Counted from the first letter of the stretch, positions 20,819 through 46,586 are shown. The stretch: 47,804 nt of DNA from an uncultured bacterium (GCA_964534375.1 CAZHPN010000022.1:1-47804), one strand, 5' to 3'. Made by a program: numbers and translations. Notes: generated by a model from the sequence alone, not told the origin.

Positions 20819-21140
20819 TCATGTTCACCTCCTTTCGATGGGCGTGATCTCCAGCATCTTGCCGCAACCATGATAGCAGCTTTTGCTTAGAAAAACGCCA
20901 GGAACGACCGACTTTTCGCCCTGGGACTTGGCCACGTCGAGCGGCGTCCAAAAGGGCACGTTCGGTCACTTTCAACAACTCGGCCGCTTCAGCGACCGAA
21001 AAGACTTCATCAACCGGAATAACACCCGGGTGCAACTCCTGAAAATATTGCGTGGCGGTGTCTTCAGTCATCGGCCGCCAGTCGGCTACTGGCTGGTCCC
21101 CACACGCCTCAAGAAAGTTGCTCGAAATAGATTCGTTCAT
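20676..21140 (-). CDS. Excisionase-like HTH protein
   Basis: VFSVAEAAELLKV...RRGQVPGRKVGRSWRF. The ORF overlaps the integrase 5' end by 143 nt. Confidence 0.8.
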   Translation of the reverse strand: MNESISSNFLEACGDQPVADWRPMTEDTATQYFQELHPGVIPVDEVFSVAEAAELLKVTERALLDAARRGQVPGRKVGRSWRFSKQKLLSWLRQDAGDHAHRKEVNMNGQDQSPATERNLVRGLHVPRQERKRPKVAPFDWSRKEPETGSGTGA

Positions 21141-21251: not shown

Positions 21252-21392
21252 GGGGAGGCGGGGAGGCCGGGGAGGGTGTTTCTGTTTTTGTTAAAATCGC
21301 GGGAGCGGGTGGTCACAGGTTGGCCGCAACGTCCTCTTTTTTTGAATAACGTCTAAGGCCTCCCTGGCCTCCCTGGCCTCCCTGGCCTCCCT
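21252..21392. repeat. Inverted GGGAGG iteron module, copy 1 (origin-like)
   Basis: 3x GGGAGG at 21252-21276, ~80 nt spacer with A/T tracts, 4x GGCCTCCCT at 21357-21392. Overlaps the primase 3' end. Confidence 0.85.
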
Positions 21393-24676: not shown

Positions 24677-25528
24677 CTACCAGCTACGGCATGCGGCTTG
24701 GTGTCCGCAGCCCTCGCAGGCCCAGCCCGGATTCGGGTAGAACACGTCCTGGTCGAGCGCCCTCAGTACCAAATGGGTCAGCTTTTCAAACCGTCGCACG
24801 TCCCGGTCTTCGCGGACGGTTACATATTCCTCAATGGCCGGCTTCTTCAATTTTAGGGCAACCTGCCAACTCAGAGTGAGTTGGGCGTCCTCTGGGAGGA
24901 ATCCGCCCCTATCTAAGAGAAATTTGTACGCCGTGAGTTGGTTGTCACTGGCGATCTTGGCCTCGTCGTACCTCCGAGCGGCGGTTTTCAAGTCGATCAG
25001 ACGGTACAGCGAATGGTCAGACGTGTCCCGAAGCATCACGTCCACGACGCCGATGAAGTCGATGTTCTCGTCCAGGGCAACGCGGAGGGGCTGCTCCACG
25101 GCAACCACGGACTCGGCAGTCGGCATTCCCTTCTGCTGAAGCCAAGTGTAGTAAGCCTCGATGAGCTTGACCCCGAGGTCTTTCAAACTGGCCCAGGTTT
25201 CGTCGTTTTTGAGCCGGACATAACCCTTCCCGGCTTCTTCCTGGGATGCCCAGTGGGCGGCGAACGCCTCCTGCAATTCCTGCAAGGACGGCACGTGATC
25301 GGTGATTTGGACGGTTTTGTACAGCAGTTCGATCCCCTGGTGGAACGCTGACCCGAAGGGCAACGCCACGGGCACGAATTCCGGTTGCAGGCCCAAAACG
25401 TAAGCGAATTGGAACTTTAACGGGCATAAGAGGTACGTATTCAATTGCGAGTAGCTGATGTGCAGGCCATCGCGGATTTCGTCGAGGCTGGGCATCAGAT
25501 ACGGTCTGGATTCTTTGGCTGCGAACAT
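24677..25528 (-). CDS. PD-(D/E)XK nuclease (AddB/RecB/Cas4-like)
   Basis: SYSQL..YLLCP, GSAFH, GVVD, IDLKT, QLTAY and C-terminal CxxC...C. Confidence 0.88.
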   Translation of the reverse strand: MFAAKESRPYLMPSLDEIRDGLHISYSQLNTYLLCPLKFQFAYVLGLQPEFVPVALPFGSAFHQGIELLYKTVQITDHVPSLQELQEAFAAHWASQEEAGKGYVRLKNDETWASLKDLGVKLIEAYYTWLQQKGMPTAESVVAVEQPLRVALDENIDFIGVVDVMLRDTSDHSLYRLIDLKTAARRYDEAKIASDNQLTAYKFLLDRGGFLPEDAQLTLSWQVALKLKKPAIEEYVTVREDRDVRRFEKLTHLVLRALDQDVFYPNPGWACEGCGHQAACRSW

Positions 25529-25635: not shown

Positions 25636-26292
25636 CTAAGCCGCTTGGAGCGTCTGAATGAGGTCGCTGGCCTGCGCTTTGCTGATGAAGTCGGGCATCT
25701 TCTGGTAACGCTGGACGCTCAACCGTTGGAGGTCGTCCTTGGTCATTTGCCGGTCTTTGATGAGGTTGTGCAGATAGGCGAGTTGCTTGGCGGTGATGCG
25801 GCCGTTACCGTTGCCGTTCCCGTTTCCGTTGCCGTTGCTCGGTTGGGTCTCGCCGTTGGACTTCGCGGGTGCGCTGCCCGGTTCCTTCGGTCTGGCTTCC
25901 TCTTTGTCGTTCTCGAACATGTGTAGGCCCACTCCGAGCAGGGTCGAGGCCTTCTTCAAGCTGTCGGTGCTGGCCGCTTTGAAGTCGTCCACGAGGCTGA
26001 CGACTTCCCCGGTCTCTTTGTTCAAAGTGATGCGTGAGCCACCGAACGACATCTTGACGCCCAGCGGGCAGGTCAATTTTCCGAGGACCGACACCTCAGG
26101 ATCGTGAATCTTGTACTCGGTGATTTCGAAGGACCACTGACCGTCGAACGCCTCGTTGAGCCGGCGGATGACGGCATGGCCCTCGATATACAAGAGCGAT
26201 TGCCCGAAGTTGCCCGGGCGGCTTTTGATTTGGTCCTTGGTGAACGGGGTTTCGAGGACTTCGCGGACACTGCTTTTGTTCTGATCTGACAT
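25636..26292 (-). CDS. Rad52/Rad22-family single-strand annealing protein
   Basis: LLYIEGHAVIRRLNEAFDGQWSF and FKAASTDSLKKASTLLGVGLHMF; C-terminal ITAKQ helical domain. Confidence 0.88.
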   Translation of the reverse strand: MSDQNKSSVREVLETPFTKDQIKSRPGNFGQSLLYIEGHAVIRRLNEAFDGQWSFEITEYKIHDPEVSVLGKLTCPLGVKMSFGGSRITLNKETGEVVSLVDDFKAASTDSLKKASTLLGVGLHMFENDKEEARPKEPGSAPAKSNGETQPSNGNGNGNGNGNGRITAKQLAYLHNLIKDRQMTKDDLQRLSVQRYQKMPDFISKAQASDLIQTLQAA

Positions 26293-26651: not shown

Positions 26652-27479
26652 TTACGAGTTGGCTGCGGCATTGAGGCGGGGATTGAGGCGGGATTCGATG
26701 CCAGAAATAATCTGCTGAACGACGTGGACGATGTTGCTGAGCCGGTCGGTCACCTCCTTTCCGTTGGCTCCGTGAAGGGCCAAATAATTGGGTGCGGCGG
26801 ACGGCACGGTGAAATACCGGCAAACGACGTTGGCCGCGGTCTCGGCCTCGATCTCACGGGTTTTTCTATCCAGTTCGCCGTGTTTGGCCTTATGCCCGAG
26901 CAGTTCATGGGCAATTTCGTGGGCCAGAACGGCAAAGCGATCGGCCCCTTCCAGGGCGTCCGAAATGACGACGGTTCCGCCCTTGGACACGCCGTAGAGT
27001 GATCCGTGCAGTGTCGAAGTCTCGACCTTGATTTGCTGTGCCCCGGCGAAATCGGTCAGCGCAGTGGTCAAGTCAAACGCACAGGCCGAATGACTCAGGA
27101 CCTCGACCTCGGGCAGTTCCTCGCCTTCCGTTTGGCTCAGGTCAAAGACATAAACCGTGCGGAAGCGGGTTACGATGGTTTCCTCGTCGGTCTCGTCGTC
27201 TTTCTTCTTGACGCCGATCGGGGCCAGGATGGCAATGCCCTTCTCGCCCTTCCGAACGAACCGGCCCATGCTCTTCCACGTTTGGAAGCCGGCGACACGG
27301 GTTGCATCGGGCCGTTGGCAAAAGATCAGGATCGTGTTGTGGAACGAGTAGTTGTGGAACCGGGCACAGAATGAAAGGTAGTCGGTCAGTTCGCGGCTGG
27401 TTCGGACCTGATCCGTCGAGGCCGCAAGTTGCTCGACGAAGCCCTTGATCCGTGAATGCAGTTCGATTGTCGTTGGCAT
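26652..27479 (-). CDS. ArdC-like ssDNA-binding domain + zincin metallopeptidase-like domain
   Basis: FHNYSFHNTILI, VAGFQTWKSMGRFVRKGEKGIAILAP, VFDLSQTEG, HEIAHE and EIEAE. Confidence 0.88.
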   Translation of the reverse strand: MPTTIELHSRIKGFVEQLAASTDQVRTSRELTDYLSFCARFHNYSFHNTILIFCQRPDATRVAGFQTWKSMGRFVRKGEKGIAILAPIGVKKKDDETDEETIVTRFRTVYVFDLSQTEGEELPEVEVLSHSACAFDLTTALTDFAGAQQIKVETSTLHGSLYGVSKGGTVVISDALEGADRFAVLAHEIAHELLGHKAKHGELDRKTREIEAETAANVVCRYFTVPSAAPNYLALHGANGKEVTDRLSNIVHVVQQIISGIESRLNPRLNAAANS

Positions 27480-29834: not shown

Positions 29835-29897
29835 TCAAACGGACGGAGGTGTCGGATGCGAGTTTCGATCCGCCTTCCGACCAGAAAGGGAAAAACC

Positions 29898-30647
29898 ATG
29901 AATAAGCTGTTTCTGATTGCCTTGATGGCGGTCCTCGCGCTGAGCCTAGGATTGTTGATCGCATGCGGCAGTTCAAGCAACAAGAGTAGTTCCGCGGCGC
30001 AACCAGAGGGGGCGTGCTGCGTGCAGACAACGTGCTCAATCACGTCACAAGCGGCCTGCAGCGGCGGTCATTGGCTTGGGGGCAATACCGTCTGCGCGCC
30101 GAACCCCTGCGCGGTGAGTGACGATGACAATGATGACGACGGCTCGCCTGACGATGATGACAACGACAATGATAACGATGATGACGATACCACTGGAGAA
30201 TCCGTCTGGACCGATACGACGACCGGTCACATGTGGCAGAACGGCGCAACAGTCGGGGCAAACTATTATGAATGGACGGCTGCGCAGAATTACTGCGCGG
30301 GGCTGAGTTGGGGCGGCTACAGCGGCTGGCATTTGCCGGATATTGACGAGTCTCGCAGCCTGATCCGGGGGTGCACCGCCGCAGAAACGGGTGGTTCCTG
30401 CGGCGTGACCGACTCGTGCTTGGAATCAAGTTGCACTAGTGCTGCATGTAATGGTTGCTCAGGGTTAGATGGCCCCGGGCCGGGCGGTGCCTACTGGCCT
30501 CCAGAGGTCTCAGGCAAAGCCACGTGGTATTGGTCGGCCTCGGCGGTCGCGGGCGGTCCCGGCGGCGCGTGGGGTGTCAGTTTCAGCGGCGGTACCATTG
30601 CCGTTCTCTACGACGATCTCAGCCTTTGTGCGCGGTGCGTTCGGTAG
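29898..30647 (+). CDS. Lipoprotein with Asp-rich linker and DUF1566 (Lcl-type) domain
   Basis: Lipobox LLIAC; WTDTTTGHMWQ, GGYSGWHLPDIDE, YWSAS, AWGVSF and terminal RCVR. Confidence 0.85.
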   Translation: MNKLFLIALMAVLALSLGLLIACGSSSNKSSSAAQPEGACCVQTTCSITSQAACSGGHWLGGNTVCAPNPCAVSDDDNDDDGSPDDDDNDNDNDDDDTTGESVWTDTTTGHMWQNGATVGANYYEWTAAQNYCAGLSWGGYSGWHLPDIDESRSLIRGCTAAETGGSCGVTDSCLESSCTSAACNGCSGLDGPGPGGAYWPPEVSGKATWYWSASAVAGGPGGAWGVSFSGGTIAVLYDDLSLCARCVR

Positions 30648-30730
30648 CCGCAGAACCCTATCGCAGGGCGTTCTTGACTACCTTGGTGAGCAGTATGCAC
30701 GCCAAGCTGGCTTGCTGACCGGCCAAATTC

Positions 30731-30863
30731 AGGGAGGCTGGGGAGGCTGGGGAGGCCCTACATAAAATCTCCAGAAAGTGATTCGCTGTACACGATCGCG
30801 TGATGCACACGGCCATTTTTTGAGAAAAACACGCTGGCCCTCCCTGGGCTCCCTACCCTCCCT
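30731..30863. repeat. Inverted GGGAGG iteron module, copy 2
   Basis: AGGGAGGCT GGGGAGGCT GGGGAGGCC, 79 nt spacer, GCCCTCCCT GGGCTCCCT ACCCTCCCT. Confidence 0.88.
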
Positions 30864-31339
30864 GTCCGCGGCTGAAAACTACCGGTCGCCGTCAATCATG
30901 TACACGGAACGTCCGGCCAGCCAAGTCTGCCAACACCGCTGGAACTGCGCCGGCTGCTAGGATGTCCGCGTTGACGCCGAGGGCGAACGCTGCTACTCTA
31001 AATCCACCCGTTCTGTGAAGTGGTTTTTCCTCGTCTGGCCGAACGATGCAACCGTTCGGCCTTTTGTTTCCCTACAGGTGTTTGCCTCGGCCACAGACAC
31101 GCCTTCGGGACTCATTTGCGACTTCTGTGACCAGTATACACGCGACAATATGGTCCTGACCGGCCAGAATCACCGTGCTGGAAAGGCAATTGGCGCCGGC
31201 CCATCAAATCCGCCCGAAAAGAGGGGCCGAAAGATCGCCCTCCAAAACGGCCGGAGAAAACCCTCGTAAACAAAGGATTCTTGAAGGCGTTTTTTAGTGC
31301 GGGAAAATCATTAATTTTCTCCGCACCAACAATGTTGTA

Positions 31340-32716
31340 TTAGGATGCGGCTAAGACACTGGGTATAGCCGGGCGAGTGGGGCGCTGTCCCACGGTCGCT
31401 CTCACAATACAATTACTGACATCACCAGTCACCGTGGAATGGTGCGCTTCGCCCGACGCGACTCGCACGGCCTGTGTGATGGCGAGCGCGCCAGCAAAAG
31501 CGCTGACGAATGGAACGGCAACGCTACTGCCGGCAAGGATAGCGGCACCGCATCGACCCTCTTCGTTGTTACGGACGATCTCCTGGTAGGCAGGGAGCTC
31601 CATCAGCCGCGTGGTCGTGGTGGCCGTTGCATCTTCGTCGTCTTCAAAATGTTGGCAGGGGTTCATTTTGGAATCTGCGGTGTCGAAAACGTTGATCCGT
31701 ATCTTCTGGAAATTTGCAGCCGTCGCGCCGAGCCCAGCATCGATCACGTATTCGAATTTAGGGAGCCCGAGCCAGCGGCGCGGTCGCATGCTATCCAGGC
31801 CGGCTAACGCGAGCAAAGGCTCCTGATCTGTGCGCCGTAAAGTTTCGTCGAACCGGCGATCGATGCGGCGCACGCAAAAACCCCTCGCCTCCGCCCATTC
31901 CTCTGCGATGCGGGTCTTGAGTGGGCCATATCGGCCGCGACGGACCAATATTGATGTCGCCCAGTTTTCCTCTTTGACGATATCGTCATCCTGGAGAAAA
32001 AGAAGCACATTGTTGGGCGTCGGATACGGCAGCATGGAAAGTGACCACAGAAACGCCTGGCCGAGATTGCCGAGCCCTATTAGCCAGAGCTGTAGGGGCA
32101 GGTAGCATTGCGACTGCGGGGGGCCAGGGTCGTAAAGGGTGCTATCGGGTGACCAAAGCGACAGAGTTTGCGGTATCCTTCCGGCTTCCGCATGATCTTG
32201 CTCGGCCATGAAAGCCTGGCCGATGGCGAGTGCACCGGCCGCGACGCCGGCGAGAAGACAATCGCTGCGGCCGTTCGCCCTAGGTGTGCGGCCAGGCGTG
32301 ACGCCTGCGACCCATCCGTCCCAAAATGCTTGAACCGACCAGGTGCTGCGATGGTTCAAGACTGGGCCAATGAGAACGGCCCGGTTTGGGAAGGGATCGC
32401 CCACGACAGCGCCGAGCTCGTAAGCCGCAGCCGCAAGATTACTGGCCGGAAGTGGGAGAGGGAGAAGCAACGGGCGATCGACCTGCCCGTGAACGCTAAC
32501 TTTCCCCTTCCCGAAGCAGCGAACAGCCGTGACCGTGGCCGTGAGAAAAGCTGCTTGCCCCGCCGGCGTGTCGGCCGCTTCGCTCGCGAGAAACAGGGAG
32601 AGGCCGGAGTTGGCGAATTTCTTGCCTGCTTCGGCAAAGGAATAGCGGCCGGAATTCACTAGCGTGAGAAGGACGCGCGAGGTCTCGGAATCGATTTCGA
32701 TTGGCGTCGTTGTCAT
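31340..32716 (-). CDS. bilD: E1/ThiF-family ubiquitin-like activating enzyme (BilD-like)
   Basis: IGLGNLG, D.D....N, DAGLG and GRCG..LAG..V.VPFV motifs. ATGA overlap with the JAB stop. Confidence 0.85.
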   Translation of the reverse strand: MTTTPIEIDSETSRVLLTLVNSGRYSFAEAGKKFANSGLSLFLASEAADTPAGQAAFLTATVTAVRCFGKGKVSVHGQVDRPLLLPLPLPASNLAAAAYELGAVVGDPFPNRAVLIGPVLNHRSTWSVQAFWDGWVAGVTPGRTPRANGRSDCLLAGVAAGALAIGQAFMAEQDHAEAGRIPQTLSLWSPDSTLYDPGPPQSQCYLPLQLWLIGLGNLGQAFLWSLSMLPYPTPNNVLLFLQDDDIVKEENWATSILVRRGRYGPLKTRIAEEWAEARGFCVRRIDRRFDETLRRTDQEPLLALAGLDSMRPRRWLGLPKFEYVIDAGLGATAANFQKIRINVFDTADSKMNPCQHFEDDEDATATTTTRLMELPAYQEIVRNNEEGRCGAAILAGSSVAVPFVSAFAGALAITQAVRVASGEAHHSTVTGDVSNCIVRATVGQRPTRPAIPSVLAAS

Positions 32717-33234
32717 TGCGGCCACCATCCGATGTAGAGGGTCCGGGCGCCATGCGCGCTGTGGTCGCGCCACTGGCGCGCGCCGAGATATTCGTACACA
32801 CCGACTTCTCCTGGTAGGTGATTGCATGCGGCGTAATCGGGGACGATGAGCGCGAAATGGCCGAGTTCCGCGATCATGGGATTCTGGCGGTCGGTTCGGC
32901 TCTGGCTGTAATGACCGGGATGGACGTGCACATCGGCCACGACACTCATTTTCAAAGCGCGACATTTTGCCCAGACCAGGCCGAACTTGCTACCGTCGAA
33001 CTCGACGATGCCATTGGCGAAGCAATTTGGATCGACGTCGTCGTAGTAGAGGAAGTGCTGGATTCTTCGAGTACGTCGGTTGGCGTTGCCGAGAAGGAAG
33101 GCACCGCTCTCGCGCCTGCCAGCGGCTCGCCGTTTCAGTTCCTCGACGCCCTGGTTCCAGATGCGTGGGCTACAAACCAGCTTCGGGGGCCGGCCGAGAG
33201 CCGCGCGCAGCAGCGTTGGAAGTGAGAAGACCAT
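32713..33234 (-). CDS. bilC: JAB/JAMM metallo-isopeptidase (BilC-like)
   Basis: RESGAFLLG and VHVHPGHYSQSRTD (E...HxH...S..D). Confidence 0.88.
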   Translation of the reverse strand: MVFSLPTLLRAALGRPPKLVCSPRIWNQGVEELKRRAAGRRESGAFLLGNANRRTRRIQHFLYYDDVDPNCFANGIVEFDGSKFGLVWAKCRALKMSVVADVHVHPGHYSQSRTDRQNPMIAELGHFALIVPDYAACNHLPGEVGVYEYLGARQWRDHSAHGARTLYIGWWPQ

Positions 33235-33673
33235 GCAAATCCTCCAAGATGAAAGCGATTTCACGCTTAGGATTCCAGGCGAGGTTGGGGTGCGCCTGCG
33301 CCCAGTTGTTATGGGCACCGCTTGCACGTTCCCAGGGTCGATAAACGGTGTTATGCGGTGCCCAGTTCTTAAAGGCCGCCACCACGCGATCTGACCCTTT
33401 CGGGCGGCGGTTCTCGGCGAGTAGGTCGTTGGTCGCGCAATCCCAGATCTGAACGGCTGGCGCAGTTCCGGGAAATCCGGACAGCTCAAAGTGAAAGAAA
33501 TATTCGCTGGCGGTGCCCTCTGGCTCCACCGCAGCTACCGCCATGATCAGCACGGGAAAAGTATACGATACCACGTGCCAGTACTTACACCGGTCGCCCG
33601 CCTTGAAGCGGGTGGACGCCAAATCGGCGTCCACCGCGCTTTGTGCAGGGTTAGCAAGTCCATCGGGAATCAT
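33170..33673 (-). CDS. bilB: E2-like protein (BilB-like)
   Basis: Position between Ubl and JAB; FP..AP....WD, PKG, and Y.P..R...H.NW...HP...W pattern. Confidence 0.78.
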   Translation of the reverse strand: MIPDGLANPAQSAVDADLASTRFKAGDRCKYWHVVSYTFPVLIMAVAAVEPEGTASEYFFHFELSGFPGTAPAVQIWDCATNDLLAENRRPKGSDRVVAAFKNWAPHNTVYRPWERASGAHNNWAQAHPNLAWNPKREIAFILEDLHGLLTSNAAARGSRPAPEAGL

Positions 33674-34199
33674 CGTTCGCTCCCTGCGGCAACACGCCCC
33701 GAATCAAGTCAAGGGCGAGTCGATGGTGGTGGTGGTGCCCTTCGTGTTGAACGTAGCGGCCGATATGGGCGGTCTTGGGCAACTCGTGAGCGTCCGGAAT
33801 TTTGTCGTGGCGGGCAAGCTCCATCTCTGGTGCTAGGATCGGATCGAGATTAAATCCGTCCTTGCCGACGGCCCAGTCCAGGACACATTGGACGCGGGCG
33901 GACGGGGGAAACCGTTTTTCCTTTTCCAGGTTCTTGTAAAAGACAACGACCGCGATCTCCCGCACTCGATGGACGTGGTGTTTCTTGCGCGCCATGTCGT
34001 CCGTGACGACGATGGCAAGATCCAATGGCTCACCGCAATCTTCGACCAGCAGGATCGCCTCTTCCGCCGGGAAGCCACCCTTCTCGGCGACGGCCACGAC
34101 GATTTCGCGGGCCGTATGGCCCCGAGGAACGGGAATAAATTCGATTCCCTTGAGTGTTTCGCCTTCAACCATCACTTCAATCGTTTGTTCGTCAGACAT
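33651..34199 (-). CDS. bilA: Tandem-domain ubiquitin-like protein (ISG15-like, BilA-like)
   Basis: Two beta-grasp-sized halves linked by HVHR; RFPPSARV..VLDWAV; ends LPQG plus a 9-aa extension. Confidence 0.78.
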   Translation of the reverse strand: MSDEQTIEVMVEGETLKGIEFIPVPRGHTAREIVVAVAEKGGFPAEEAILLVEDCGEPLDLAIVVTDDMARKKHHVHRVREIAVVVFYKNLEKEKRFPPSARVQCVLDWAVGKDGFNLDPILAPEMELARHDKIPDAHELPKTAHIGRYVQHEGHHHHHRLALDLIRGVLPQGANDDSRWTC

Positions 34200-34255
34200 A
34201 GTGTTTCCTCCTCCGTTGACACCTCACAGGGGGGCCAACGCGATGTGTTCGCAAA

Positions 34256-34321
34256 ACAGTAATATTCGCCAACCATGATGTCAAGAGCGTCTGTTGACTT
34301 TTTTTCGCGATGCATTAACAT
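34256..34321. promoter_or_regulatory. Back-to-back sigma-70 promoters between bilA and the capH-like gene
   Basis: Minus: TTGACA(34284-34279)-17-TACTGT. Plus: TTGACT(34294-34299)-16-TAACAT. Confidence 0.65.
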
Positions 34322-34350
34322 AAGCCAAGTTGAACTGGCGGGGTACATAT

Positions 34351-34752
34351 ATGCGTCTCGGCGAACGGATCAAGAAACGGCGAATCGAACTCAATTGGAC
34401 ACAAGACGAGTTATGCCGCCGAGCCAAAATCAGCAAAGGGTTTCTGTCCGATGTCGAAAACGGAAAGCGAAGTATAGGCGCAGAAACCCTCCTCGATCTC
34501 GCTCGCGTTCTTTCGTTGTCCTTAGATTATTTGATGACAGGGGACCCCTCAGAAACGCTTCCGAACGAAGAAATCGAGATACCGGCGGGCCTTGCTCGGT
34601 TCGCAGAACAAGAAGGGCTTTCATTCCGGAATACATTGGCGATGTTGGACATGCAACGCCAGATAATCGCTCACCGAAGCTCCTCAAAGGAAGAAGGTTT
34701 GGACGAAGTTGATTGGCGGAATTTTTACAACGCGGTGAAGGATTACCTGTGA
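34351..34752 (+). CDS. XRE-family HTH repressor (CapH-like)
   Basis: LGERIKKRR..LNWTQDEL...ISKGFLSDVENGKR. Divergent from the defence operon and coupled to a peptidase gene. Confidence 0.88.
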   Translation: MRLGERIKKRRIELNWTQDELCRRAKISKGFLSDVENGKRSIGAETLLDLARVLSLSLDYLMTGDPSETLPNEEIEIPAGLARFAEQEGLSFRNTLAMLDMQRQIIAHRSSSKEEGLDEVDWRNFYNAVKDYL

Positions 34753-35792
34753 GACTCGATCGTGAGCCAGAAGTAATTCGCGTTGCCTCGGAGTTGAGGG
34801 CCGTAGATCAAGGAAACGGACCTGTCCAAGCCGTCATCGATTATTGCTGCGAGAAGGCACGTCGTCTGATTGGCGGATTGAAAATAAGTTCGCTCGCCGA
34901 GTTCGAGCAAGTAATCTGTTCCAGGCTCAAGCTCGTCTTTGAGACGATTTACGACGACCGGGATTTGGATGTTGTTGCGGAAAAATATAGACGCCTCGGA
35001 GAGATCGCTTTCCTTCGAATCAAAACTACGTTCGATCCGGCAACTTTTGCAATCCTTATGGAAAGAAGAAACATTAACGGGCGATCACCTGACAGATACG
35101 TCGCGGTCATCGACTGTCGCGGCGAAAAGGCCCACCGGGCCTACTTCTCTCGTTGGCACGAAATCGCTCACTTGCTTACGCTTAAGCGTCAATTGGAATT
35201 GCCGTTCTATCGATCAACGGGAACGACACCTTCCGAGAAACTGATGGACTCTGTCGCGGGTGAGTTGGCTTTTTTCGCCCCGCTTTTCGGGCCGGTTTTG
35301 GAAAAACACATCCGCGCAAATGGTCTTCTCTCGTTTGGTGTGGTGGATGCCGTGCGCTGGGACGCTTGTCCCGAGTCGAGCTATCAAGCGGCGCTTTTCG
35401 CCTGCTTGAGGCAGACGCCGACGGCGGCATTATTACTTGATGTTGGCCTCGGTCTCACGAGTGCCGAGAAAAAACTTGTCGAATCGAAGTCGCTACCGCT
35501 TTTCCCGGTGAAAGCGCCAGAACCGAGATTGCGGGTGTTAACCGCAAATTCAAGTGCTTCAGCACGCGCCACCGATTTTCGTGTCCATCGGAACATGCAC
35601 GTCCCTGCCGAATCCATAGTCTCGCAGCACTACGAGGACACGAAAGACTCGCCCATTGATACTGGCGCCGCGGGTCTGGAAGACTTTTCTATCTGGCGTC
35701 ATTCCGATGGACGGTCCGTCGGCGAGGGCCAGATTCGCGTCGAGGCAAGGCGCTTCGGCAATCAATTCCTCGCGTTGATCACACGGCCCTAA
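34749..35792 (+). CDS. ImmA/IrrE-family metallopeptidase (CapP-like)
   Basis: RAYFSRWHEIAHLL (HExxH) with downstream E. GTGA overlap with the HTH gene. Confidence 0.82.
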   Translation: MRLDREPEVIRVASELRAVDQGNGPVQAVIDYCCEKARRLIGGLKISSLAEFEQVICSRLKLVFETIYDDRDLDVVAEKYRRLGEIAFLRIKTTFDPATFAILMERRNINGRSPDRYVAVIDCRGEKAHRAYFSRWHEIAHLLTLKRQLELPFYRSTGTTPSEKLMDSVAGELAFFAPLFGPVLEKHIRANGLLSFGVVDAVRWDACPESSYQAALFACLRQTPTAALLLDVGLGLTSAEKKLVESKSLPLFPVKAPEPRLRVLTANSSASARATDFRVHRNMHVPAESIVSQHYEDTKDSPIDTGAAGLEDFSIWRHSDGRSVGEGQIRVEARRFGNQFLALITRP

Positions 35793-35996
35793 CTTCCCCC
35801 GTCGGGCGGCATTTTTATGCCGGCCGAGCCGACAATCACGGTTGTCTTCGGCGTGGGCAATGTTTTTTCATCCAATTCGCTCTCCCCTTTTCGCGGCCTT
35901 TCTCGTCGGTTCCTTGTGCGACACATACTGAAGATAGGCCGCAATCCGGTCCGTTGCAATTGCCTTCCGAGCCTCGGACAACTCGATCTCACGTCT

Positions 35997-36114
35997 GGGG
36001 AGGCCAGGGAGGCTGGGGAGGCCCTTTGTAAAATTCTGTAAAAATGATCCCGAATGGGCAGGCGCTGTTTTGGAAAAGTTTACGCAGACCCTCCCTGGGC
36101 TCCCTACCCTCCCT
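35997..36114. repeat. Inverted GGGAGG iteron module, copy 3
   Basis: GGGGAGGCC AGGGAGGCT GGGGAGGCC, 64 nt AT-rich spacer, ACCCTCCCT GGGCTCCCT ACCCTCCCT. Confidence 0.88.
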
Positions 36115-36259
36115 GTTCTGGCCTTGATCTATCCGATCCATCGTTTTCTTCCAGCGATTTCGAGGTCAATGTCGAAGGCTTATCTAGGCAGCGCCAGCCA
36201 CATGTCATTCGCGATCGCTTTTTAGCTCGACCTCGCCGTGGCAGGCCATCCGGTACCCA

Positions 36260-39025
36260 CTAAACCAACTCAAACCAGCCGGCGAGGCGAGCGGAAAATG
36301 CGCCGGTATTGTCCGCAATGCCGCGGTGGCGAAGTTCACGCTGAAGCATCGGCTCCAGGTGGTCCCGCAGGATTTGGCGCCGTTGGGCAATATCGAATGT
36401 GGGAGCGGCGGGCGCACCGTGCATCAGCTTGTCGGCCTGTTTCTCCCACGAGGGCATCCGCGTTCCGTCCGGCCGCGTGGCCAGCGGGACCAGATAGAGC
36501 CGTTGCTCGCCCTTTGCCGTGTTGCTCTCGACCATCCACCAGGACAGCACGCCGGCGCCCTGGCCGTCGCTCTGCACGGCCACGCCCAACTCTTCGGGCG
36601 GCAGACCTCTCCAACGCTCCAAAGCCTGCTTGATGACCGGATGGTCGATGCCGAGCAGGTCCACATCATCGCGCTCGCGGGCGAGGTCACGGTTCGTCGT
36701 GAAGCGCACGATCATCTCCGCGTTCGGCCCGCGCAATTCATAGACCTCATCCGTAATCTTGACGATCTTCTGTCCCTGATCCGCGGTGGCCGCACCCAAG
36801 AACCGCACGAGTCGGTCGATGCCGGCCTCGATGTCGGCGAACGGCTTGTAATCCTCCAGGCTGAACCCCTCCAGGTCCTGGAAAAGCTCGAAGACGACCT
36901 GCCGCGCCTCCTTGGCATTCGACAGAGCCGCCTCCAACTCAAGCTGTGTCCGCTTCAATTCCGGGTCCGACAACGCATCTTGGTACAGCCGCTCGTAGCT
37001 CAGCTTCTCCGCCAACTGGCCTAGAATCTGCGAGCGCAGGTCTTCCGCGACGTTGCCCTCGTCGTCCACCTTGCCCAAGGCGGTGGCGATCTCCTTCAAT
37101 TTGTCTTCCAACAACAGGAAAATCCGGCCTTCGATGGTGTCGGAAAGCACAAGGTTATACACTTGGGCGGTATGTAGCTGTTTGTAACGATGAATACGGC
37201 CGATGCGTTGTTCAACGTCCATCGGGTTCCACGGCAAATCGAAATTGAACAGGACGCGAGCGGTCTGAAGGTTGATGCCTTCGCGGCCGGCTGCGGTGCA
37301 GACGAGCACCTTGGGGCCTTCCGGCGCTCGGAACCGGCGCTCGGCTGCGACCTTGGCGCCGTGATCGCCGCCTTTGAGCACTACTACTCCCTGGCCGGGA
37401 TAGTCCGCGTCGATTTCCCGGCCGATCAGGTCCACCGTGCCCAGGTACGTGGCGAACACGACCACCTTCTCGTTCGGGTTGATGCGCCACAAAGCCCCAA
37501 GAGCCGCGAGGAGCTTCTCGACCTTGGTTTCCCGCTCGGCTGCCGGCGTGGCGAGCAATTCTTCGATACGCTGGCGCTCCTGGGGCAAGGCCAGACTGAT
37601 CGCGGCTGCGGCAACATCCTCGGCATGAGCGGTGGCAAATTCCGACGAATAGGGGTCCGCGGCCATCTTCAGTTCGTCTTCGTCCAGCTTTTTCAGAATC
37701 TTGATCTTGGAGTCGGCCAACACGCGGTCCACCTGACCGCGCCCAATCGGGTCATCGCCAAGGCCGTACTCTTCCCGAATTAGAACACGGGCCTCATCAT
37801 AAAGAGCTTGGCGGCCGTCAATATCGAGGTCCTGGTCCCGCAAGATCGCCTCGTGCAGGGTCAGATTCAGCAGACGCCGCCTGAGTGTGCGCCGGACGGC
37901 CGCAAAGCTAGAGGCGGCGATCTTCTGGAAGATGGCCATCACGAAACCCAGGCTGCGCCCCTTGTTGCCCTGGCGCTTCGCAAGAGCAAAGCCGTCCTCC
38001 AGGTATTCCCGCAGCCGGTCGTAGAACACACGCTCGGTATCCGACATTAGGAACGATTCGGTATGCACTTGGCGGCGGGCAAACAGCGCCGAGCCGTCCG
38101 GCTTGCAGGAGTCGGCCTTGGTGCGCCGATAGACGACCGCATTGAGCCGGTGCCGGTTCTCCACCATGTCTTCGGGATGTTTGAACAGCGTCGGATTCAG
38201 AAGCTGGACCAACATCCAGAACCGGAAGTGGTCGCCCTGGTGCGGCGTCGCCGACAGCATGAGCATGTCGCGGCAATGCGACCGCAACGCCTCAGCCAGT
38301 TTGTAGTTCTCGGTCTTGGTGACTTTCCGACCGCTTCGATAGGCGGACAGGTGGTGCGCCTCGTCAAAGACGATCAGGTCCCACGGCGGCGCTTCCAGAA
38401 TTTTTCGCAGTCGGGCGGGCCGTTTGAGCGTGTCGATGCTGGCGATCAAGAAGTCATGCTTGGCAAAGGCGTTGGATCTCCGGTCGGTGACATCGCCCTC
38501 GCTGCCGAACATTTCAAAGTCGAGGTTGAAGACTTCGTTGAGTTCCAGATACCAGTTGTTCACCAGACCGGCCGGAACAACCATCATGGCCCGCTTCAAT
38601 TCGCCTCGGCTGGTCAACTCGCGCAGCAGCAGCGCCGTTTCGATGGTCTTGCCCAACCCGACTTCATCCCCAATCAGGTAACGCCGCGGCGAGGCCGTGG
38701 CGATCCGGTGCGTCAAAACCACTTGATGAGGCAGCACGTCAATCTTGGCGGCTGTCAATGCCGCCGCGCTCTCCATCAGCGGCAACGAGTGTGCTTCACA
38801 GGCCAGCCACGCTTTCCGCAGACGCTCCGCTGTGCCCTGGACGCCGGCGAGGATGCGTTCCTTGTACGGCGTCTCCCAACGGACGGAAGAAACCGGGACG
38901 ACCTTCTCGCCGACGGCGAAAAAGACGCGCACATAGCCGTCCTGCGGCTGGTCGATGATGACGCCATTGCCGAACTCGACGTGGTTGATGCGTTGACCCG
39001 GTTGGATGGTCAGAACGTCTTCCAT
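36260..39025 (-). CDS. SNF2-family SF2 helicase (BrxHII-like)
   Basis: DEVGLGKT, DEAHH, SATPH, EGINLQ and EQRIGRIHR. ATG overlaps the upstream stop. Confidence 0.92.
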   Translation of the reverse strand: MEDVLTIQPGQRINHVEFGNGVIIDQPQDGYVRVFFAVGEKVVPVSSVRWETPYKERILAGVQGTAERLRKAWLACEAHSLPLMESAAALTAAKIDVLPHQVVLTHRIATASPRRYLIGDEVGLGKTIETALLLRELTSRGELKRAMMVVPAGLVNNWYLELNEVFNLDFEMFGSEGDVTDRRSNAFAKHDFLIASIDTLKRPARLRKILEAPPWDLIVFDEAHHLSAYRSGRKVTKTENYKLAEALRSHCRDMLMLSATPHQGDHFRFWMLVQLLNPTLFKHPEDMVENRHRLNAVVYRRTKADSCKPDGSALFARRQVHTESFLMSDTERVFYDRLREYLEDGFALAKRQGNKGRSLGFVMAIFQKIAASSFAAVRRTLRRRLLNLTLHEAILRDQDLDIDGRQALYDEARVLIREEYGLGDDPIGRGQVDRVLADSKIKILKKLDEDELKMAADPYSSEFATAHAEDVAAAAISLALPQERQRIEELLATPAAERETKVEKLLAALGALWRINPNEKVVVFATYLGTVDLIGREIDADYPGQGVVVLKGGDHGAKVAAERRFRAPEGPKVLVCTAAGREGINLQTARVLFNFDLPWNPMDVEQRIGRIHRYKQLHTAQVYNLVLSDTIEGRIFLLLEDKLKEIATALGKVDDEGNVAEDLRSQILGQLAEKLSYERLYQDALSDPELKRTQLELEAALSNAKEARQVVFELFQDLEGFSLEDYKPFADIEAGIDRLVRFLGAATADQGQKIVKITDEVYELRGPNAEMIVRFTTNRDLARERDDVDLLGIDHPVIKQALERWRGLPPEELGVAVQSDGQGAGVLSWWMVESNTAKGEQRLYLVPLATRPDGTRMPSWEKQADKLMHGAPAAPTFDIAQRRQILRDHLEPMLQRELRHRGIADNTGAFSARLAGWFELV

Positions 39026-39546
39026 TAGGAAATCCTGTGCAGGTGCAGCCCGATCCAGCCGGGACCGTCGGCGTCCTGGTTCGTCGCATCGGGATTCATG
39101 ACGCGGCAAACATCCTTCTCGGCGCCGCCCCAGAGGAGTCGGCCGATCGGTAGGTCTTGATTGCGGTACGGCTGGGCGCAACGCCAGGAGTAGCATTCCG
39201 TGGGAAGGTTCATGTTGATGCGGTCGCGGCCAGAGGGAATCCAGAGTATCAGGCTCGCCTCCGATTGATATTCATACTGAAAACTCAGAATGGCGGGCTT
39301 TAGATCACGCTCCAACCACGTTTCGGCGTCTTCGGGAGTCAACGTGTCGAGGCATCCCTCCAGGCCGGCGACGATGAGCGTCGAACTCTTGTTGCTGGGC
39401 AAATCCTCCGGCCACTTCCGGGCCATCTCGAAAAAGACGCGGATGGAAACGACCTCGGAAGGGGCGGCCAAGTTCGCCAGCGTCTCGCCATCCCACAGGA
39501 GGGAAAAGCCCCGCCGCGTCCATGATTGGTCTTTTAGTAGCTGCAT
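39025..39546 (-). CDS. Hypothetical protein of the DUF499 operon (possibly degenerate ATPase-like)
   Basis: 173 aa, tightly coupled between the methylase and helicase. LIVAGLE resembles a Walker-B strand; no Walker A. Confidence 0.75.
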   Translation of the reverse strand: MQLLKDQSWTRRGFSLLWDGETLANLAAPSEVVSIRVFFEMARKWPEDLPSNKSSTLIVAGLEGCLDTLTPEDAETWLERDLKPAILSFQYEYQSEASLILWIPSGRDRINMNLPTECYSWRCAQPYRNQDLPIGRLLWGGAEKDVCRVMNPDATNQDADGPGWIGLHLHRIS

Positions 39547-39552
39547 GACGGC

Positions 39553-42500
39553 CTACTCCCCTTTGTCTCCGAATTGCATTTCCAGTTGAACAAGCTTCTC
39601 CCGGTTCGTCCGCGCCCAGGTTTGGTAGATCACCTGTGCTCGTGTCGCCGCATTCCGAATCTCATTGGTCGCGCCGCGTTTGATGTGCCATTCGAGCAGC
39701 GCCGCCAGAGCCGGGTGCGGCCGGAAATTCTCGTTCTTCAGCGTGTCGGCGGCGTTGATGCCGCTGTTTTCAAAGCACGCGCCGATCAGGAACATGGCCT
39801 GGTCGTAGTCCGCCGTCATGCCCTGGCGGCGACGACCGTGCCACGTCTGCGCGATATCTCGCGGCGAGCCGAGGTGGTAAACCTTGCCCTCCTCCCTGCA
39901 CCAGCCGCGGTCTGCGAACTCGTTAGGGGCGATGCCGGTCCCCTTGAGAAACTTTTGCATCTGGTCCCGCGGCTGTTCAGTGCAGCCCTCGAAGATGCGG
40001 AGAAACTGCCGCGTAAATGGCTCTGCGGTGACGGGCGGCGGCTGTTTGGCCTTGCCGGATTCTTCGTCGAGAAGCTGGTTGATGCCCAGGAGCGCATCGC
40101 GGACGGTAAACTCGCGGCCCTCGTCCACGTACACCTTGCCGTAGTGCCGGGAAAAATATTCCAGCGCCTTGCCGCGCTTGATGACCTGGAGATCGGCCGG
40201 GAGCAATCCTGCTTTGGCATGGTGTTCAAGGAGAGACTTCAACTGCTGAACATCATCCAGCACCTCGCGCCGCATTCGTGCCCAACTTACGGGCTTCGGT
40301 TCCTCGGTACGCTTTCGGCAAACATGGATGATGTCGTACTCGATCTGCTTGGAGCCGAATTCACCTTCGCCTTTTGTCTCGTCGCTGCGAATCGGATAAG
40401 TCGCTTCGAGGTAGAAGCCGGTGTCGAAAAGGCTCTCCAGCACGGCCACCCACGGCGCATCTTCACTATGGTGAAACGTGAAGCAGAGGAGGCCGCCCGG
40501 TTTGAGAATTCGGTGCGCCTCACGCCAGCATTGCGTAAGGAGCCGCTTGTAGAAACCGTCGGGATTTTCAGGCTCACGAGCGCGGTTGGACACGACCTCC
40601 AATGCCTTGGGCGTGTACTCTGCCGTGAAATTATCTGGGTATTGAGCTTTGAGCACCAACCGCAACCAGACGTAGAAGAAGTCCGAAAGTTCGGAGTAAT
40701 GGAGAAGACCACCAAACGGAGGATCAGTAATCACCAGATCGAACGATCCGTTAGCAAGCGAAACAAGGTCGGTCGCCGAGACACTAACAACCTCATGAGC
40801 GCTGAGGATCGGGGGGTCTCCGCACAGAACCTTTGAACTCTTGCCGGTCAGGCCATTGGCGATTGTTGGAGTCGTTGCGTCAAGCCATTCCGTGCTTACG
40901 AGTTCCCACGGGTCTTTTCGCCATTGCAACCCCTTGAAGAGCGCCTCAAACGTCGATGACCACGGCCCATAACCCATGGGACTAAACACCCCAACTTCGA
41001 TTACCGTTGACTTCGGATGAAAATTTGGATTGGAAAGCGCTGGTGCTAACTTGTCGTATGTCATGTGCCAAAATGACAGCATACATTGATTTCGCAAATA
41101 TTGCTGAAATGCACCAAGCACATATTCCCGCGCTTCCCATCGGTGTGGGGGCCCTCCCACTCGAACAATCGACCGCAGAAGCTGTGTATGCCCAAGAAGT
41201 TGGCGCGAGTTGAACATCCTCCACCAGTGCGTGAAGCCGTGATTGGGGATGCCTCCGTTGAGCAGGTGCGTCATGAAGCCGTATGGCAGCTCACTTCGTG
41301 GCCAGTAGTCTTTGAGGTCTGTTTCGTTTCGTGAGGCCCACTCGTGTACGGCGGCGTCGAACGCCGAGGTGTCGGTGGCGGGGGAGAAAAAACGGCCGCC
41401 ATACGGTCGGCTTTCACGGTCACAGGCGGGGCAGTATCCCTGGATTGCGTATGCAGCGACCGGGCCAGTTTTCCCGGAGCGTTTGACTGTTTCCAATACG
41501 TCCTGCACGGTCCCGCAGGCGCCACATGCGTAGTGTGACTTTCTTGGCACGGTCCCTTTGTTCGTCGAGAAGGTGATCTTCGTGGCCGGGCAGGTGATCT
41601 CAGCCGGCAAGGCACCGCGGACCTCAACTAAGCGCATGCTCCGAGCACGTTCACGGTTCCATGCGGTTATTGGCCCAGGACCATCCTGGGAGCTTCCACC
41701 GTAATCTTGCCCGTCGGGTCCGACTTTGGGCGAGCCTTTTAGCCAGAATGGATGGACCAGTAACGTGAGGTCGATTTTCTTGTTCTTCCCCTTGCCCAGC
41801 GACGGTTCAATCCGGTGTTTGCAATGCGGACAGACCGCTCCGCGAGTCGTATCGAGGATGGCGAAAGGCTTCTCACCGGCGGCGACCACCAAAGGAACTC
41901 CAGGAGCCATCCGTGCCTCGGCCGCCTCAATATCAAACGGCTTATGGCATCTTGGACACTCATAGTCCTCCCAGGTTTTCACAGATAGCGTCTTCACGGC
42001 CATAACGGGGCTCGACATGATCGGTGTGCGATGGCCACAGCCGGTGACTTGGCAGGGGCCATGCTTCGCCCAGAAGACATAGATGATCTCCGGCCCCTCG
42101 TAGCTGTAGTCCAGACGCTGTTCGGGCGTCAGGGTCAGGGGATCGAAGCCCTTGCCCATGACCTTGCCGGTCGAAACGTGGGTCCATTTGCCCTTGTGGC
42201 CGCGTGGGCATTCGCAGGCGTAAAACGGCATAATTTTTGGCTTGACCTCGGCCTCGATGTCGGCGAGGAGCGCCTCCACTTCTTCCTTGGTCACCTTGGC
42301 GAACTCGTTCTTGACGACGAACCAGGCGACGGGGTTTAGGTCCGTTCCCCACATCTGCATACCGAGCCGCGAGCCTTCCACCAGAGTTGTCCCGCCGCCC
42401 ATGAAAATATCGGCCACCTTCAAGCGCGAGAGGGCGCCTTTCTTCTGGTGGTTGGCGTAGTACACATCCCATACCGCCTTGGCCGCCTGCGCCGGGTCTT

Positions 42501-42780
42501 CGGGTGCTTTCATCGCGGCGGCCAGCAGCATGGCGCGGAACACGCTCGACCGGCGCCGCGCCCACCACTTCGACATCTGGTAGATCGGCTTGCCGGCGTT
42601 GCCCTCGATTTGCGCGATCTGGTTGATGGGCAGCAGCGGGAAATCCACTTCCAGACAGGTCGGCGGCCGGTTCGGGTCATTGAAATCGACCGTCTCGACG
42701 GCAACATTTTTTCCCGCGCCGACCGTATCGGCGATTTGTTGAGCGAGCGACTTCCCACCATTCTTTACTGCACGAGCCAT
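39553..42780 (-). CDS. DUF1156-type amino-DNA methyltransferase with Zn ribbons
   Basis: KWWARR, DIFMGGG (SAM binding), TDPPF (catalytic motif IV) and several CxxC pairs. Confidence 0.9.
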   Translation of the reverse strand: MARAVKNGGKSLAQQIADTVGAGKNVAVETVDFNDPNRPPTCLEVDFPLLPINQIAQIEGNAGKPIYQMSKWWARRRSSVFRAMLLAAAMKAPEDPAQAAKAVWDVYYANHQKKGALSRLKVADIFMGGGTTLVEGSRLGMQMWGTDLNPVAWFVVKNEFAKVTKEEVEALLADIEAEVKPKIMPFYACECPRGHKGKWTHVSTGKVMGKGFDPLTLTPEQRLDYSYEGPEIIYVFWAKHGPCQVTGCGHRTPIMSSPVMAVKTLSVKTWEDYECPRCHKPFDIEAAEARMAPGVPLVVAAGEKPFAILDTTRGAVCPHCKHRIEPSLGKGKNKKIDLTLLVHPFWLKGSPKVGPDGQDYGGSSQDGPGPITAWNRERARSMRLVEVRGALPAEITCPATKITFSTNKGTVPRKSHYACGACGTVQDVLETVKRSGKTGPVAAYAIQGYCPACDRESRPYGGRFFSPATDTSAFDAAVHEWASRNETDLKDYWPRSELPYGFMTHLLNGGIPNHGFTHWWRMFNSRQLLGHTQLLRSIVRVGGPPHRWEAREYVLGAFQQYLRNQCMLSFWHMTYDKLAPALSNPNFHPKSTVIEVGVFSPMGYGPWSSTFEALFKGLQWRKDPWELVSTEWLDATTPTIANGLTGKSSKVLCGDPPILSAHEVVSVSATDLVSLANGSFDLVITDPPFGGLLHYSELSDFFYVWLRLVLKAQYPDNFTAEYTPKALEVVSNRAREPENPDGFYKRLLTQCWREAHRILKPGGLLCFTFHHSEDAPWVAVLESLFDTGFYLEATYPIRSDETKGEGEFGSKQIEYDIIHVCRKRTEEPKPVSWARMRREVLDDVQQLKSLLEHHAKAGLLPADLQVIKRGKALEYFSRHYGKVYVDEGREFTVRDALLGINQLLDEESGKAKQPPPVTAEPFTRQFLRIFEGCTEQPRDQMQKFLKGTGIAPNEFADRGWCREEGKVYHLGSPRDIAQTWHGRRRQGMTADYDQAMFLIGACFENSGINAADTLKNENFRPHPALAALLEWHIKRGATNEIRNAATRAQVIYQTWARTNREKLVQLEMQFGDKGE

Positions 42781-42785
42781 TTGAA

Positions 42786-43784
42786 TCAGGACCTCTTCCG
42801 CGCCAATTCGATGAACGGCGAAATCACTTCCAGAACGGACAAGCCGCCGTGGGCCAAGGTCGGGTAGCCGCCTTGGCTTTTCCACTTCCGACGCCCGACG
42901 ACATAACGATTCTCGCCATGCCGCGAAGCGACCACGAGGTCCAGCGGCGGTACGCACGAGGAACCAGCGCCGTTGACGGCCGCATGACGACTGCTCTTGA
43001 ACATGTTCTTGAGCTGTTTGGCTTGGTCTTCGGGCGTGTCGGGAAACAGCCCGGTGGCCGCATAGCCGTGATCGGACGTGATGACGAGGCGACGGCCGGT
43101 GGTGAGGCGGTCGATCAATTGCCAGAAGTCGTCGCTGGTCAGTTGGGTAGCGGCCTCCTGGGCGAGCATCTCGACGCCCTTGCCGGCGCCGGACCATTCA
43201 TGGACCTTGTTGTCCGGCCACTGATGCCATAGGACCCACCGCGGCTCGCCGGCAATCAACCCGGCGCAATCTTTCCAGGGGACCGCGACCGTATCGGTGT
43301 GTGCCTTGGCAAGGCGATTCGTGGAAGGCGCTCCGTTGTTTTCCAGGGCACCCCGTTCACCGTAACCGAGTGCTTTGGCGAACGGGGTGGTGTCGGCGGG
43401 AAGCTCCGCCGCCATCGGCTTCGCGGTCACCAACTCGTATCCTCGCGCCTGGGCGCCGTGGATGATCCAAGGAGCCTCGCGCAATGAAAGCGCGTCGAGG
43501 ACCAGAACCGCTTTTCCGCCATCCTGGTTCTTCCACCAATCGGCCAGCGCGTCGGTCGTATGCTCCGTGCATCCTTCAAAAGTGGTCCAGAGGTCCCATC
43601 CTGCGGAGGCAAGAAACAAGTCGAGTGCGGCAATTTCACGGTCGCGCTTGCTCACCTCGCCGGCCGGATTTTTGGCTGTGATTGGCTTCGTGCAGATTTC
43701 CCAGGCGTGATTGAAAATAGTTTTCCAGGCGTCTTTCGGCTTGTTCCGGGAAAGCTTGCGGAGAAGGTCGAGAGGCAGTGCCAT
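42786..43784 (-). CDS. Short PglZ-like alkaline-phosphatase-superfamily protein
   Basis: LVLDALSLRE, LP..T, VITSDHGY and HGGLS..E motifs. Confidence 0.82.
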   Translation of the reverse strand: MALPLDLLRKLSRNKPKDAWKTIFNHAWEICTKPITAKNPAGEVSKRDREIAALDLFLASAGWDLWTTFEGCTEHTTDALADWWKNQDGGKAVLVLDALSLREAPWIIHGAQARGYELVTAKPMAAELPADTTPFAKALGYGERGALENNGAPSTNRLAKAHTDTVAVPWKDCAGLIAGEPRWVLWHQWPDNKVHEWSGAGKGVEMLAQEAATQLTSDDFWQLIDRLTTGRRLVITSDHGYAATGLFPDTPEDQAKQLKNMFKSSRHAAVNGAGSSCVPPLDLVVASRHGENRYVVGRRKWKSQGGYPTLAHGGLSVLEVISPFIELARKRS

Positions 43785-46504: not shown

Positions 46505-46586
46505 ATCGACCTCTCCTCGTTATCGTGCGCGCGTCATCCGCCCTTCGAACACGGCGATTTCCGAATAATTCTCGAAGGATTTGGAC

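Follow-up and report, generated by a model that had tools for sequence, protein, structure and literature searches.

We analyse a window of 47,804 nucleotides of DNA from an uncultured bacterium, which is the whole of contig C22 in a 381-contig, 6.3-Mb genome from a small and poorly sampled phylum. Starting at its transfer-messenger RNA (tmRNA) gene, the window appears to hold an integrative island with a replicon of the type found in Staphylococcus aureus pathogenicity islands (SaPI), in phage-inducible chromosomal islands (PICI) and in P4. Within this island we find three copies of one module, in which short tandem repeats, or iterons, face each other across a spacer of low guanine-plus-cytosine (GC) content. 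Module 1, at the end of the primase gene, is very probably the SaPI/PICI/P4-type origin of the island; modules 2 and 3, which lie on either side of a Bil defence system, are most likely homologous origin-type sites that the same initiator would bind. The combined proposal, namely an island with such a replicon, a module 1 that is its origin, and two further origin-type sites acting in cis, is one to which we give about an even chance, judging from sequence comparison.

Three modules with a common architecture

Read on the + strand, modules 2 and 3 have the same construction: three tandem RGGGAGGCY nonamers, a spacer, and three inverse units. Module 2 (30731..30865) has a left arm at 30731-30757, with units AGGGAGGCT, GGGGAGGCT and GGGGAGGCC, a spacer of 80 nucleotides with GC 0.45, and a right arm at 30838-30865. 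In module 3 (35997..36116), the left arm occupies 35997-36023, the spacer is 65 nucleotides long with GC 0.40, and the right arm occupies 36089-36116. The probable origin, module 1 (21253..21392, + strand), starts with a left arm of three GGGAGG-type units (21253-21278), followed by a spacer of 78 nucleotides with GC 0.45 and a right arm of four copies of GGCCTCCCT (21357-21392). The nonamer RGGGAGGCY has 11 matches in the window, for an expected number of 1.66, a count that none of 100 shuffles reaches, and all 11 matches fall in three places: 21260-21392, 30731-30757 and 35997-36023. The spacers are also unusual for the island, whose GC content is 0.579: those of modules 2 and 3 rank in the lowest 2.4% and 1.0% of island segments of the same length, and that of module 1 within the lowest 2.5%.

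Modules 2 and 3 share, letter for letter, a 28-bp right arm that has no further match in the window, even when three mismatches are allowed. The left arms agree at 24 of their 27 positions; the three differences all fall in the 2-nucleotide linkers between GGGAGGC cores, and are uncompensated in the identical right arm. Over the whole length, identity is 71% between modules 2 and 3, and 61% between either of them and module 1. The similarity ends at the edges of the arms, the flanks being 49-50% identical, a level that we take as background without a shuffle control. Spacer identity is 52-55%, which is reached by just 1 to 9 of 300 shuffles, and all three modules, in the same polarity, keep two short core blocks: TAAAAT follows the left arm, and a T-run with ACG precedes the right arm. 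Because the linker changes are uncompensated, and because the arms were kept while the spacers drifted, we favour protein recognition over selection on a stem: the pattern of the arms, in what is a small sample, is a better fit to units that a sequence-specific protein would recognise than to stem pairing. The modules do fold as long imperfect hairpins, with z-scores of -2.4 to -4.2, which is to be expected of any inverted repeat.

Four of the five canonical G-quadruplex motifs of the island (four G3+ tracts with N1-7 between them) sit in module arms, at 21252-21276 (+), 21362-21391 (-), 30842-30862 (-) and 36093-36113 (-); in modules 2 and 3, the minus-strand motif lies within the exactly kept right arm. 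Some other readings of the modules were rejected: no consensus promoter or terminator site is found inside them, with counts equal to the shuffle expectation, they match no Rfam family, and between the small + strand open reading frames (ORFs) that start within modules 2 and 3 there is no relationship.

Module 2 is flanked by the gene for an Lcl_C-domain protein and by bilD, whose ends converge on it, and module 3 by a peptidase gene and an SNF2 helicase gene. An earlier note on this DNA had described these two as modules in the same orientation, each with three RGGGAGGCY units, a low-GC core and three inverse units, with right arms exactly shared and with the second one at the end of the operon that contains a DUF499 gene. 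All of this holds: 144 bp separate module 3 from the stop of the helicase gene hmaA (36260), which is the 3' end of that operon. The note had also stated that the modules exactly bracket a defence block and that their cores have diverged. The modules do flank the block, but the fit is loose, with gaps of 475 bp between module 2 and the BilD stop and of 205 bp between the peptidase stop and module 3; and the divergence of the cores is real, but not complete, given the two blocks kept in all three modules. Module 1 is a third copy that lies outside the region considered in the note, though its wording implied such a copy.

Module 1 and the primase gene

Module 1 overlaps the stop (21313) and the last 27 or so codons of an ORF on the - strand (21313..23790), which encodes a fused primase and D5-type superfamily 3 (SF3) helicase. 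The protein is matched by the Pfam families D5_N (E 2.9e-29), DUF5906 and Pox_D5, and by the PHROG family DNA primase (5e-123). Its translation through the right arm of module 1 is QGGQGGQGGQGG; the ORF then continues for 14 residues and stops in the spacer. Its product aligns to PriRep5 of SaPI5 (PDB 7ola; residues 431-743, E 1.1e-14), and to the alpha protein of P4, with 26% identity over 273 amino acids (E 2e-13) and homology to its helicase core. This protein is the probable initiator of the island.

The origins of SaPIs, as PMC9371898 presents them, have their iterons immediately after rep, in two sets that point in opposite directions on either side of an AT-rich centre; those of Escherichia coli PICIs are described likewise in the legend of Figure 2 of PMC6092414. 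Module 1 has every feature of this layout: iterons immediately 3' of the rep ORF, three or four units per arm, opposed arms, and a spacer of low GC content.

The nonamer recurs at the 3' ends of related helicase genes. Among viral contigs, the triple-nonamer pattern is found at 39 loci, and 10 of the 39 encode a homologous helicase, with 25-33% identity; the reversed pattern, used as a control, is found at 16 viral loci, of which one has a helicase, through a weak match about 2.2 kb from the repeat. In seven viral loci, the array cluster starts between -77 and +87 bp from the helicase stop, and is made up of nnGGGAGGC units of both orientations, which stand in sets on the two sides of a spacer. 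Two pairs among these seven, L147/L161 and L150/L167, look like the same elements, which leaves about five distinct ones. The description of the modules as origin-like in the earlier note is thus supported, both by the position of module 1 at the primase stop, in the SaPI/PICI layout, and by the link between arrays and helicases in viral loci.

The helicase ORFs of several viral relatives end just ahead of the arrays, unlike the island primase, which runs through the right arm. At two other loci, L148:10001-10084 and L075:2003-2086, the nonamer pattern lies about 1.88 kb from the stop of a D5-type helicase; that of L148 sits in a longer, coding-looking repeat with a period of 27 nucleotides, a context unlike that of origin-type arrays. 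Compact modules with three units on each side also occur in the unrelated contigs L139, L125 and L120. A metagenome scan for the pattern gave at least 119 loci from 8 of 64 parts, with about 980 stretches estimated in all, so that further relatives are possible. Among at least 158 pattern loci, five have more than one cluster, and those inspected are simple-sequence-repeat (SSR) tracts or coding repeats, not islands. No paired arrays of period 9 were found beside the helicases of 34 loci obtained by protein search, and a scan of genome contigs with the primase gave, as best match, 41% identity over part of the protein.

A possible role for modules 2 and 3

The earlier note had named a scatter of the motif through the genome, in the manner of repetitive extragenic palindromes, as an argument against its own model. 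Every match in the host genome lies within the island: 7 of 7 for a pattern of two tandem units, and 8 of 8 for a looser form, all on C22. The tandem unit is absent from the seven other genomes of the family; in 16 other genomes of the phylum, there are just two matches to two units, both by chance and in coding sequence; and the collections of family, class and phylum, 17 genomes in all, contain no module elsewhere.

In their sequence, modules 2 and 3 each show every feature described for origins of the SaPI type, and may be seen as complete copies of an origin-type site, in the same orientation, whose arms were kept and whose spacers drifted. A contig of run X1 spans both modules in one piece (30655-41773), and contigs of run X2, which belongs to a different study and sample, bridge either module with the same surroundings and without a single letter of difference. 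In the mechanism that we propose, the primase/SF3 helicase would be the initiator, and the opposed GGGAGGC nonamers of module 1 would be iterons flanking a low-GC region where melting could take place. We infer that the C-terminal domain of the primase binds all three modules, and that modules 2 and 3 influence, in cis, how the induced island replicates, whether they serve as auxiliary origins or as helper or copy-control sites comparable to crr of P4. Modules would be found at cargo borders because gaps between convergent operons tolerate a non-coding element of 120-135 bp; another possibility is that modules 2 and 3 arrived during the acquisition of the cargo.

Several observations weigh against these assignments. 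The right arms of modules 2 and 3 have GGGAGGG and GGGAGCC cores, not GGGAGGC. In the seven viral loci where arrays are linked to a primase, there is one cluster each, within up to 10 kb on each side: the extra copies are therefore not conserved in this type of replicon, and are peculiar to the island. Arrays of the GGGAGGC type also occur within plain SSR tracts (L014, L044 and L045). Closer helicases, with 35-39% identity to the island primase (contigs C181 and C73 of the host genome, G000, and genomes G005 and G010), have no nonamer arrays alongside. The C-terminal domain, tried as a marker of specificity, fails, its similarity not separating helicases that have arrays from those that do not, and the same comparison of C-terminal domains brought out no specificity determinant. 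Finally, the host genome has many mirrored nonamer arrays that share the geometry of the modules, and are unrelated to any primase.

Alternative explanations

Modules 2 and 3, and perhaps all three, could belong to a host-wide class of mirrored short-tandem-repeat hairpins between genes, unrelated to replication. After filtering, the host genome holds 129 tandem arrays of period 9, of which 33 have an inverted partner within 400 bp (examples are C87:18157-18251, C45:7120-7296, C62:12262-12389 and C119:6598-6727). These arrays form at least five unit families, among them TATAGGACC, GATCAACAG, CACAGATTA, GGGAATTCT and GACCTCTGC, with arms of a length similar to those of the modules and spacers of roughly 30-150 nucleotides; in the GATCAACAG family, arms are alike and spacers are not, with a mean spacer identity of 0.43 over 28 pairs. 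An element of about 310 bp, in which GCGGGAGTG nonamers of either orientation surround an AT-rich stretch, is dispersed in at least five copies (C44:19962-20260, C29:5250-5530, C224:1-300, C298:3817-4121, C94:544-843 and C296:1-28), whose whole matches are 81-87% identical and whose spacer parts are 75-87% identical. Its copies adjoin unrelated housekeeping genes, often at contig ends, and have an origin-like look with no primase nearby. Similar structures are on record in Xanthomonas, where convergent pairs of G-rich SSRs, with unit GGGAATC, are reported near ORF ends in passages of Rehm et al. (2015, PMC4692102). Both these pairs and the host arrays resemble the modules as mirrored, short, G-rich tandem units, intergenic near gene ends, with hairpin and G-quadruplex potential; modules 2 and 3 do lie between convergent gene ends, and the SSR tracts already mentioned contain arrays of the same type. 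However, the genome has the GGGAGGCY unit in a single mobile island and at no other place, and there the unit is linked to the primase gene of the island. The common unit, polarity and core blocks point to homologous copies rather than to independent births; one copy sits where SaPIs and PICIs have their origin, and the unit recurs at the 3' ends of viral helicase genes. Moreover, three modules with the same unit occur in 0.45% of the genome, against about 0.09 expected (P of about 1e-4), rough figures that assume some 20 paired loci spread evenly, 20 being our own estimate. We consider this explanation unlikely. A little less likely still, in our judgment, is that modules 2 and 3 are functionless, decaying scars, left by origin copies that were duplicated or imported as cargo blocks were gained through recombination with co-resident related elements. 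The spacers, diverged to near background, would agree with such an origin, as would the differences in GC content between blocks (about 0.56 for the backbone, 0.61 for the Hma operon, and 0.51-0.55 for the region of the regulator and peptidase genes) and the fact that related viral elements need just one cluster. Yet the arms, with 28 of 28 and 24 of 27 positions identical and with changes in linkers, are far better kept than the spacers, which suggests selection on the units.

The earlier note had proposed a third explanation, in which modules 2 and 3 are non-autonomous copies of the origin that act as cassette boundaries, and recombination between them excises, deletes or exchanges the 5.3-kb Bil block. 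The Rad52-type protein and the PD-(D/E)XK nuclease of the island could recombine the repeats: the defence block would then leave as a small circle with one hybrid module as origin, replicated in trans by the primase. Cassettes would in this way be amplified, and exchanged between related islands, by a route that is coupled to replication and distinct from integrons and transposons. The modules are indeed direct repeats, with a 28-bp exact block and a left arm identical at 24 of 27 positions, they stand at the junction of backbone and cargo and between two defence systems, the island encodes the two proteins, and the exchange of defence cargo in satellite hotspots is stated to be an open question in passages of PMC13586616. 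Against this, a search of the family, class and phylum genomes, of genome contigs and of viral contigs found no close relative of the island in which cargo breakpoints could be compared, and no relative with other cargo at these points. Beyond the DUF499 gene, no module closes the Hma operon on its far side (46504-46822); the block is made of two divergent operons with their own regulator, and is not a promoterless cassette; spacers that are 52-55% identical speak against recent and repeated recombination between the copies; and the viral relatives linked to a primase have a single cluster. No hybrid junction of modules 2 and 3, either as a skip or as a back-joint, occurs in the contigs of four runs over 28000-47804, but contigs drop rare variants, and this absence is no evidence against rare excision. 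The joints listed have short sides and fall within the poly-Asp repeat (30112-30530) or the Hma genes; three low-depth joints (42332>35801, 36912>46302 and 32242>44756) are away from the coordinates of the modules; and contig depth, one figure per contig, is flat across the same interval. Excision through the modules thus strikes us as very improbable, and integron-like shuffling of cassettes, though possible, has no support. In a milder form of the idea, two extra origins that fire, in situ or on the excised island, would selectively raise the dosage of Bil and Hma on induction.

The cargo between modules 2 and 3

The flanked block contains six genes in two divergent operons, one of them with the regulator. 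The operon on the - strand (31340..34199; PADLOC, with Pfam matches to Prok-JAB and DUF7665) is a complete Bil, or bacterial ISG15-like, defence system, with all four genes matched: the ubiquitin-like BilA (33651-34199, PADLOC 4.8e-30), the E2-like BilB (33170-33673, PADLOC 1.7e-49, Pfam DUF7665), the JAB protein BilC (32713-33489, PADLOC 2.1e-63, Pfam Prok-JAB) and the E1-like BilD (31340-32965, PADLOC 5.2e-125), all on the - strand. These coordinates are the limits of the listed ORFs, and the actual starts of BilC and BilD may be internal. The 475 bp that separate module 2 from the bilD stop (30866-31340) include an ORF of 84 amino acids (31015-31269) and have no protein-family match; terminator-like hairpins are found there, outside module 2, at 31037-31061 (+) and 31276-31261 (-), in numbers equal to the shuffle expectation.

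Divergently from bilA, the + strand encodes an XRE-type helix-turn-helix (HTH) regulator, CapH-like in kind (34330..34752; translation and Pfam HTH_3, E 1.5e-14), followed by a protein of 359 amino acids, CapP/ImmA-like in kind, whose translation contains the motif HEIAH, of the form HExxH (34713..35792). The latter has no match in Pfam, PADLOC, NCBIfam, PHROGs or the sequences of the PDB. The earlier note had assigned the HTH gene to the frame 34275-34712, which has to be corrected to 34330-34752, the frame with the HTH_3 match: the product of the ORF 34275-34712, of 145 amino acids, is Arg-rich and of low complexity, and this ORF is probably spurious. No relatives of BilD or of the peptidase were found in viral contigs.

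The island and its other genes

The tmRNA gene (19221..19569, + strand; ARAGORN, and Rfam with 189.6 bits) has at its 3' end the attachment site attL of the island. The corresponding attR, a 52-nucleotide repeat of the tmRNA 3' end with 94% identity, was located by blastn and reading of the sequence at C13:55584-55635, about 200 bp from the end of contig C13. With attR near the end of another contig, the island must therefore run past the end of C22; its length is at least 28 kb, and its cargo probably continues on a further contig before reaching attR on C13. A tandem accretion of several islands was considered and rejected, the window having no internal copy of the att sequence.

Next to the attachment site are a tyrosine integrase gene (19688..20818, - strand; Pfam Phage_integrase, E 5.9e-32) and a gene for an HTH_17 protein, excisionase- or AlpA-like (20676..21140, - strand; Pfam HTH_17, E 1.8e-11), whose true start is probably internal, because the ORF as listed overlaps the integrase gene. 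Beyond the primase gene, the - strand encodes the PD-(D/E)XK nuclease (24677..25528; Pfam PDDEXK_1, E 3.9e-32), the single-strand annealing protein of Rad52/22 type (25636..26292; Pfam Rad52_Rad22, E 1.5e-11) and an ArdC-N-like anti-restriction protein or metalloprotease (26652..27479; Pfam ArdcN 2.2e-11, PHROG anti-restriction protein 1.3e-13). The final gene ahead of module 2, on the + strand, encodes the Lcl_C-domain protein, with a poly-Asp linker (29856..30647; Pfam Lcl_C, E 1e-16).

On the other side of module 3, an Hma-like defence operon (36260..46504, - strand; PADLOC and Pfam) comprises the SNF2 helicase HmaA (36260-39196; PADLOC HmaA 1.9e-91, Pfam SNF2-rel_dom), the DUF1156 methylase HmaB (39553-43197; PADLOC HmaB 2.4e-36, Pfam N6_N4_Mtase and DUF1156) and a DUF499/AAA ATPase (43784-46504; Pfam DUF499), all on the - strand. 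A DUF5131 protein (46822-47727) comes after this operon, near the contig end, and matches the PADLOC candidate-defence models PDC-M41B and PDC-M30B (E 6e-67).

Discussion

Among known systems, the island is close to SaPIs and PICIs such as SaPI5 with its PriRep5, SaPIbov1 and EcCICFT073: it is an integrative island with a fused primase and self-loading SF3 helicase homologous to PriRep5, and both module 1 and the viral loci have opposed iterons downstream of rep, split by an AT-rich stretch. The differences are threefold. The island has GGGAGGC nonamers with a period of 9 bp, whereas SaPIs and PICIs have penta- or hexanucleotides; it has three complete origin-like modules over 15 kb, where they have one; and its host, an uncultured bacterium, belongs to a small, poorly sampled phylum, not to Firmicutes or Enterobacteria.

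The comparison with P4 bears on the extra copies. In the P4 record, a 'type 1' iteron is annotated in both crr and ori, about 4.7 kb apart; crr, which is required in cis, lies directly 3' of the alpha gene and is itself made of two 120-bp direct repeats. P4 shares with the island, whose helicase core is homologous to alpha, a short iteron that is found in both directions and at more than one place, with one of these places directly 3' of the gene for the primase. This use of one iteron at two separate places is a precedent for the dispersed clusters of the island. However, the iteron of P4 is an 8-mer, and between its two sites are replicon and regulatory genes, not defence cargo, whereas the distant copies of the island are full modules with opposed arms that bracket a Bil system. 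P4-like satellites do carry defence hotspots, according to PMC9122126 and PMC13586616.

The attC cassettes of integrons are similar to the modules in that they place imperfect inverted repeats of about 60-140 bp at the ends of gene blocks. They differ in several respects: the arms of the modules are tandem nonamers, not R and L boxes, the block has six genes in two divergent operons, and the sole integrase is 10 kb away at the tmRNA att site. No integron-type platform with attI and Pc was seen in the window, in which IntI-specific features were not searched.

If it were true that copies of an origin mark and mobilise cargo, they would supply both the missing flanking homology and a means of cargo amplification in the exchange of defence systems at satellite and island hotspots, which passages of PMC13586616 openly leave unsettled. 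On the more conservative reading, the SaPI/PICI/P4 type of replicon is extended to an uncultured, poorly sampled phylum, with a defined iteron, the GGGAGGC nonamer, that recurs with D5-type helicases in environmental viral contigs; and the island would be a naturally occurring element in which three origin-type sites, all complete, are found together.

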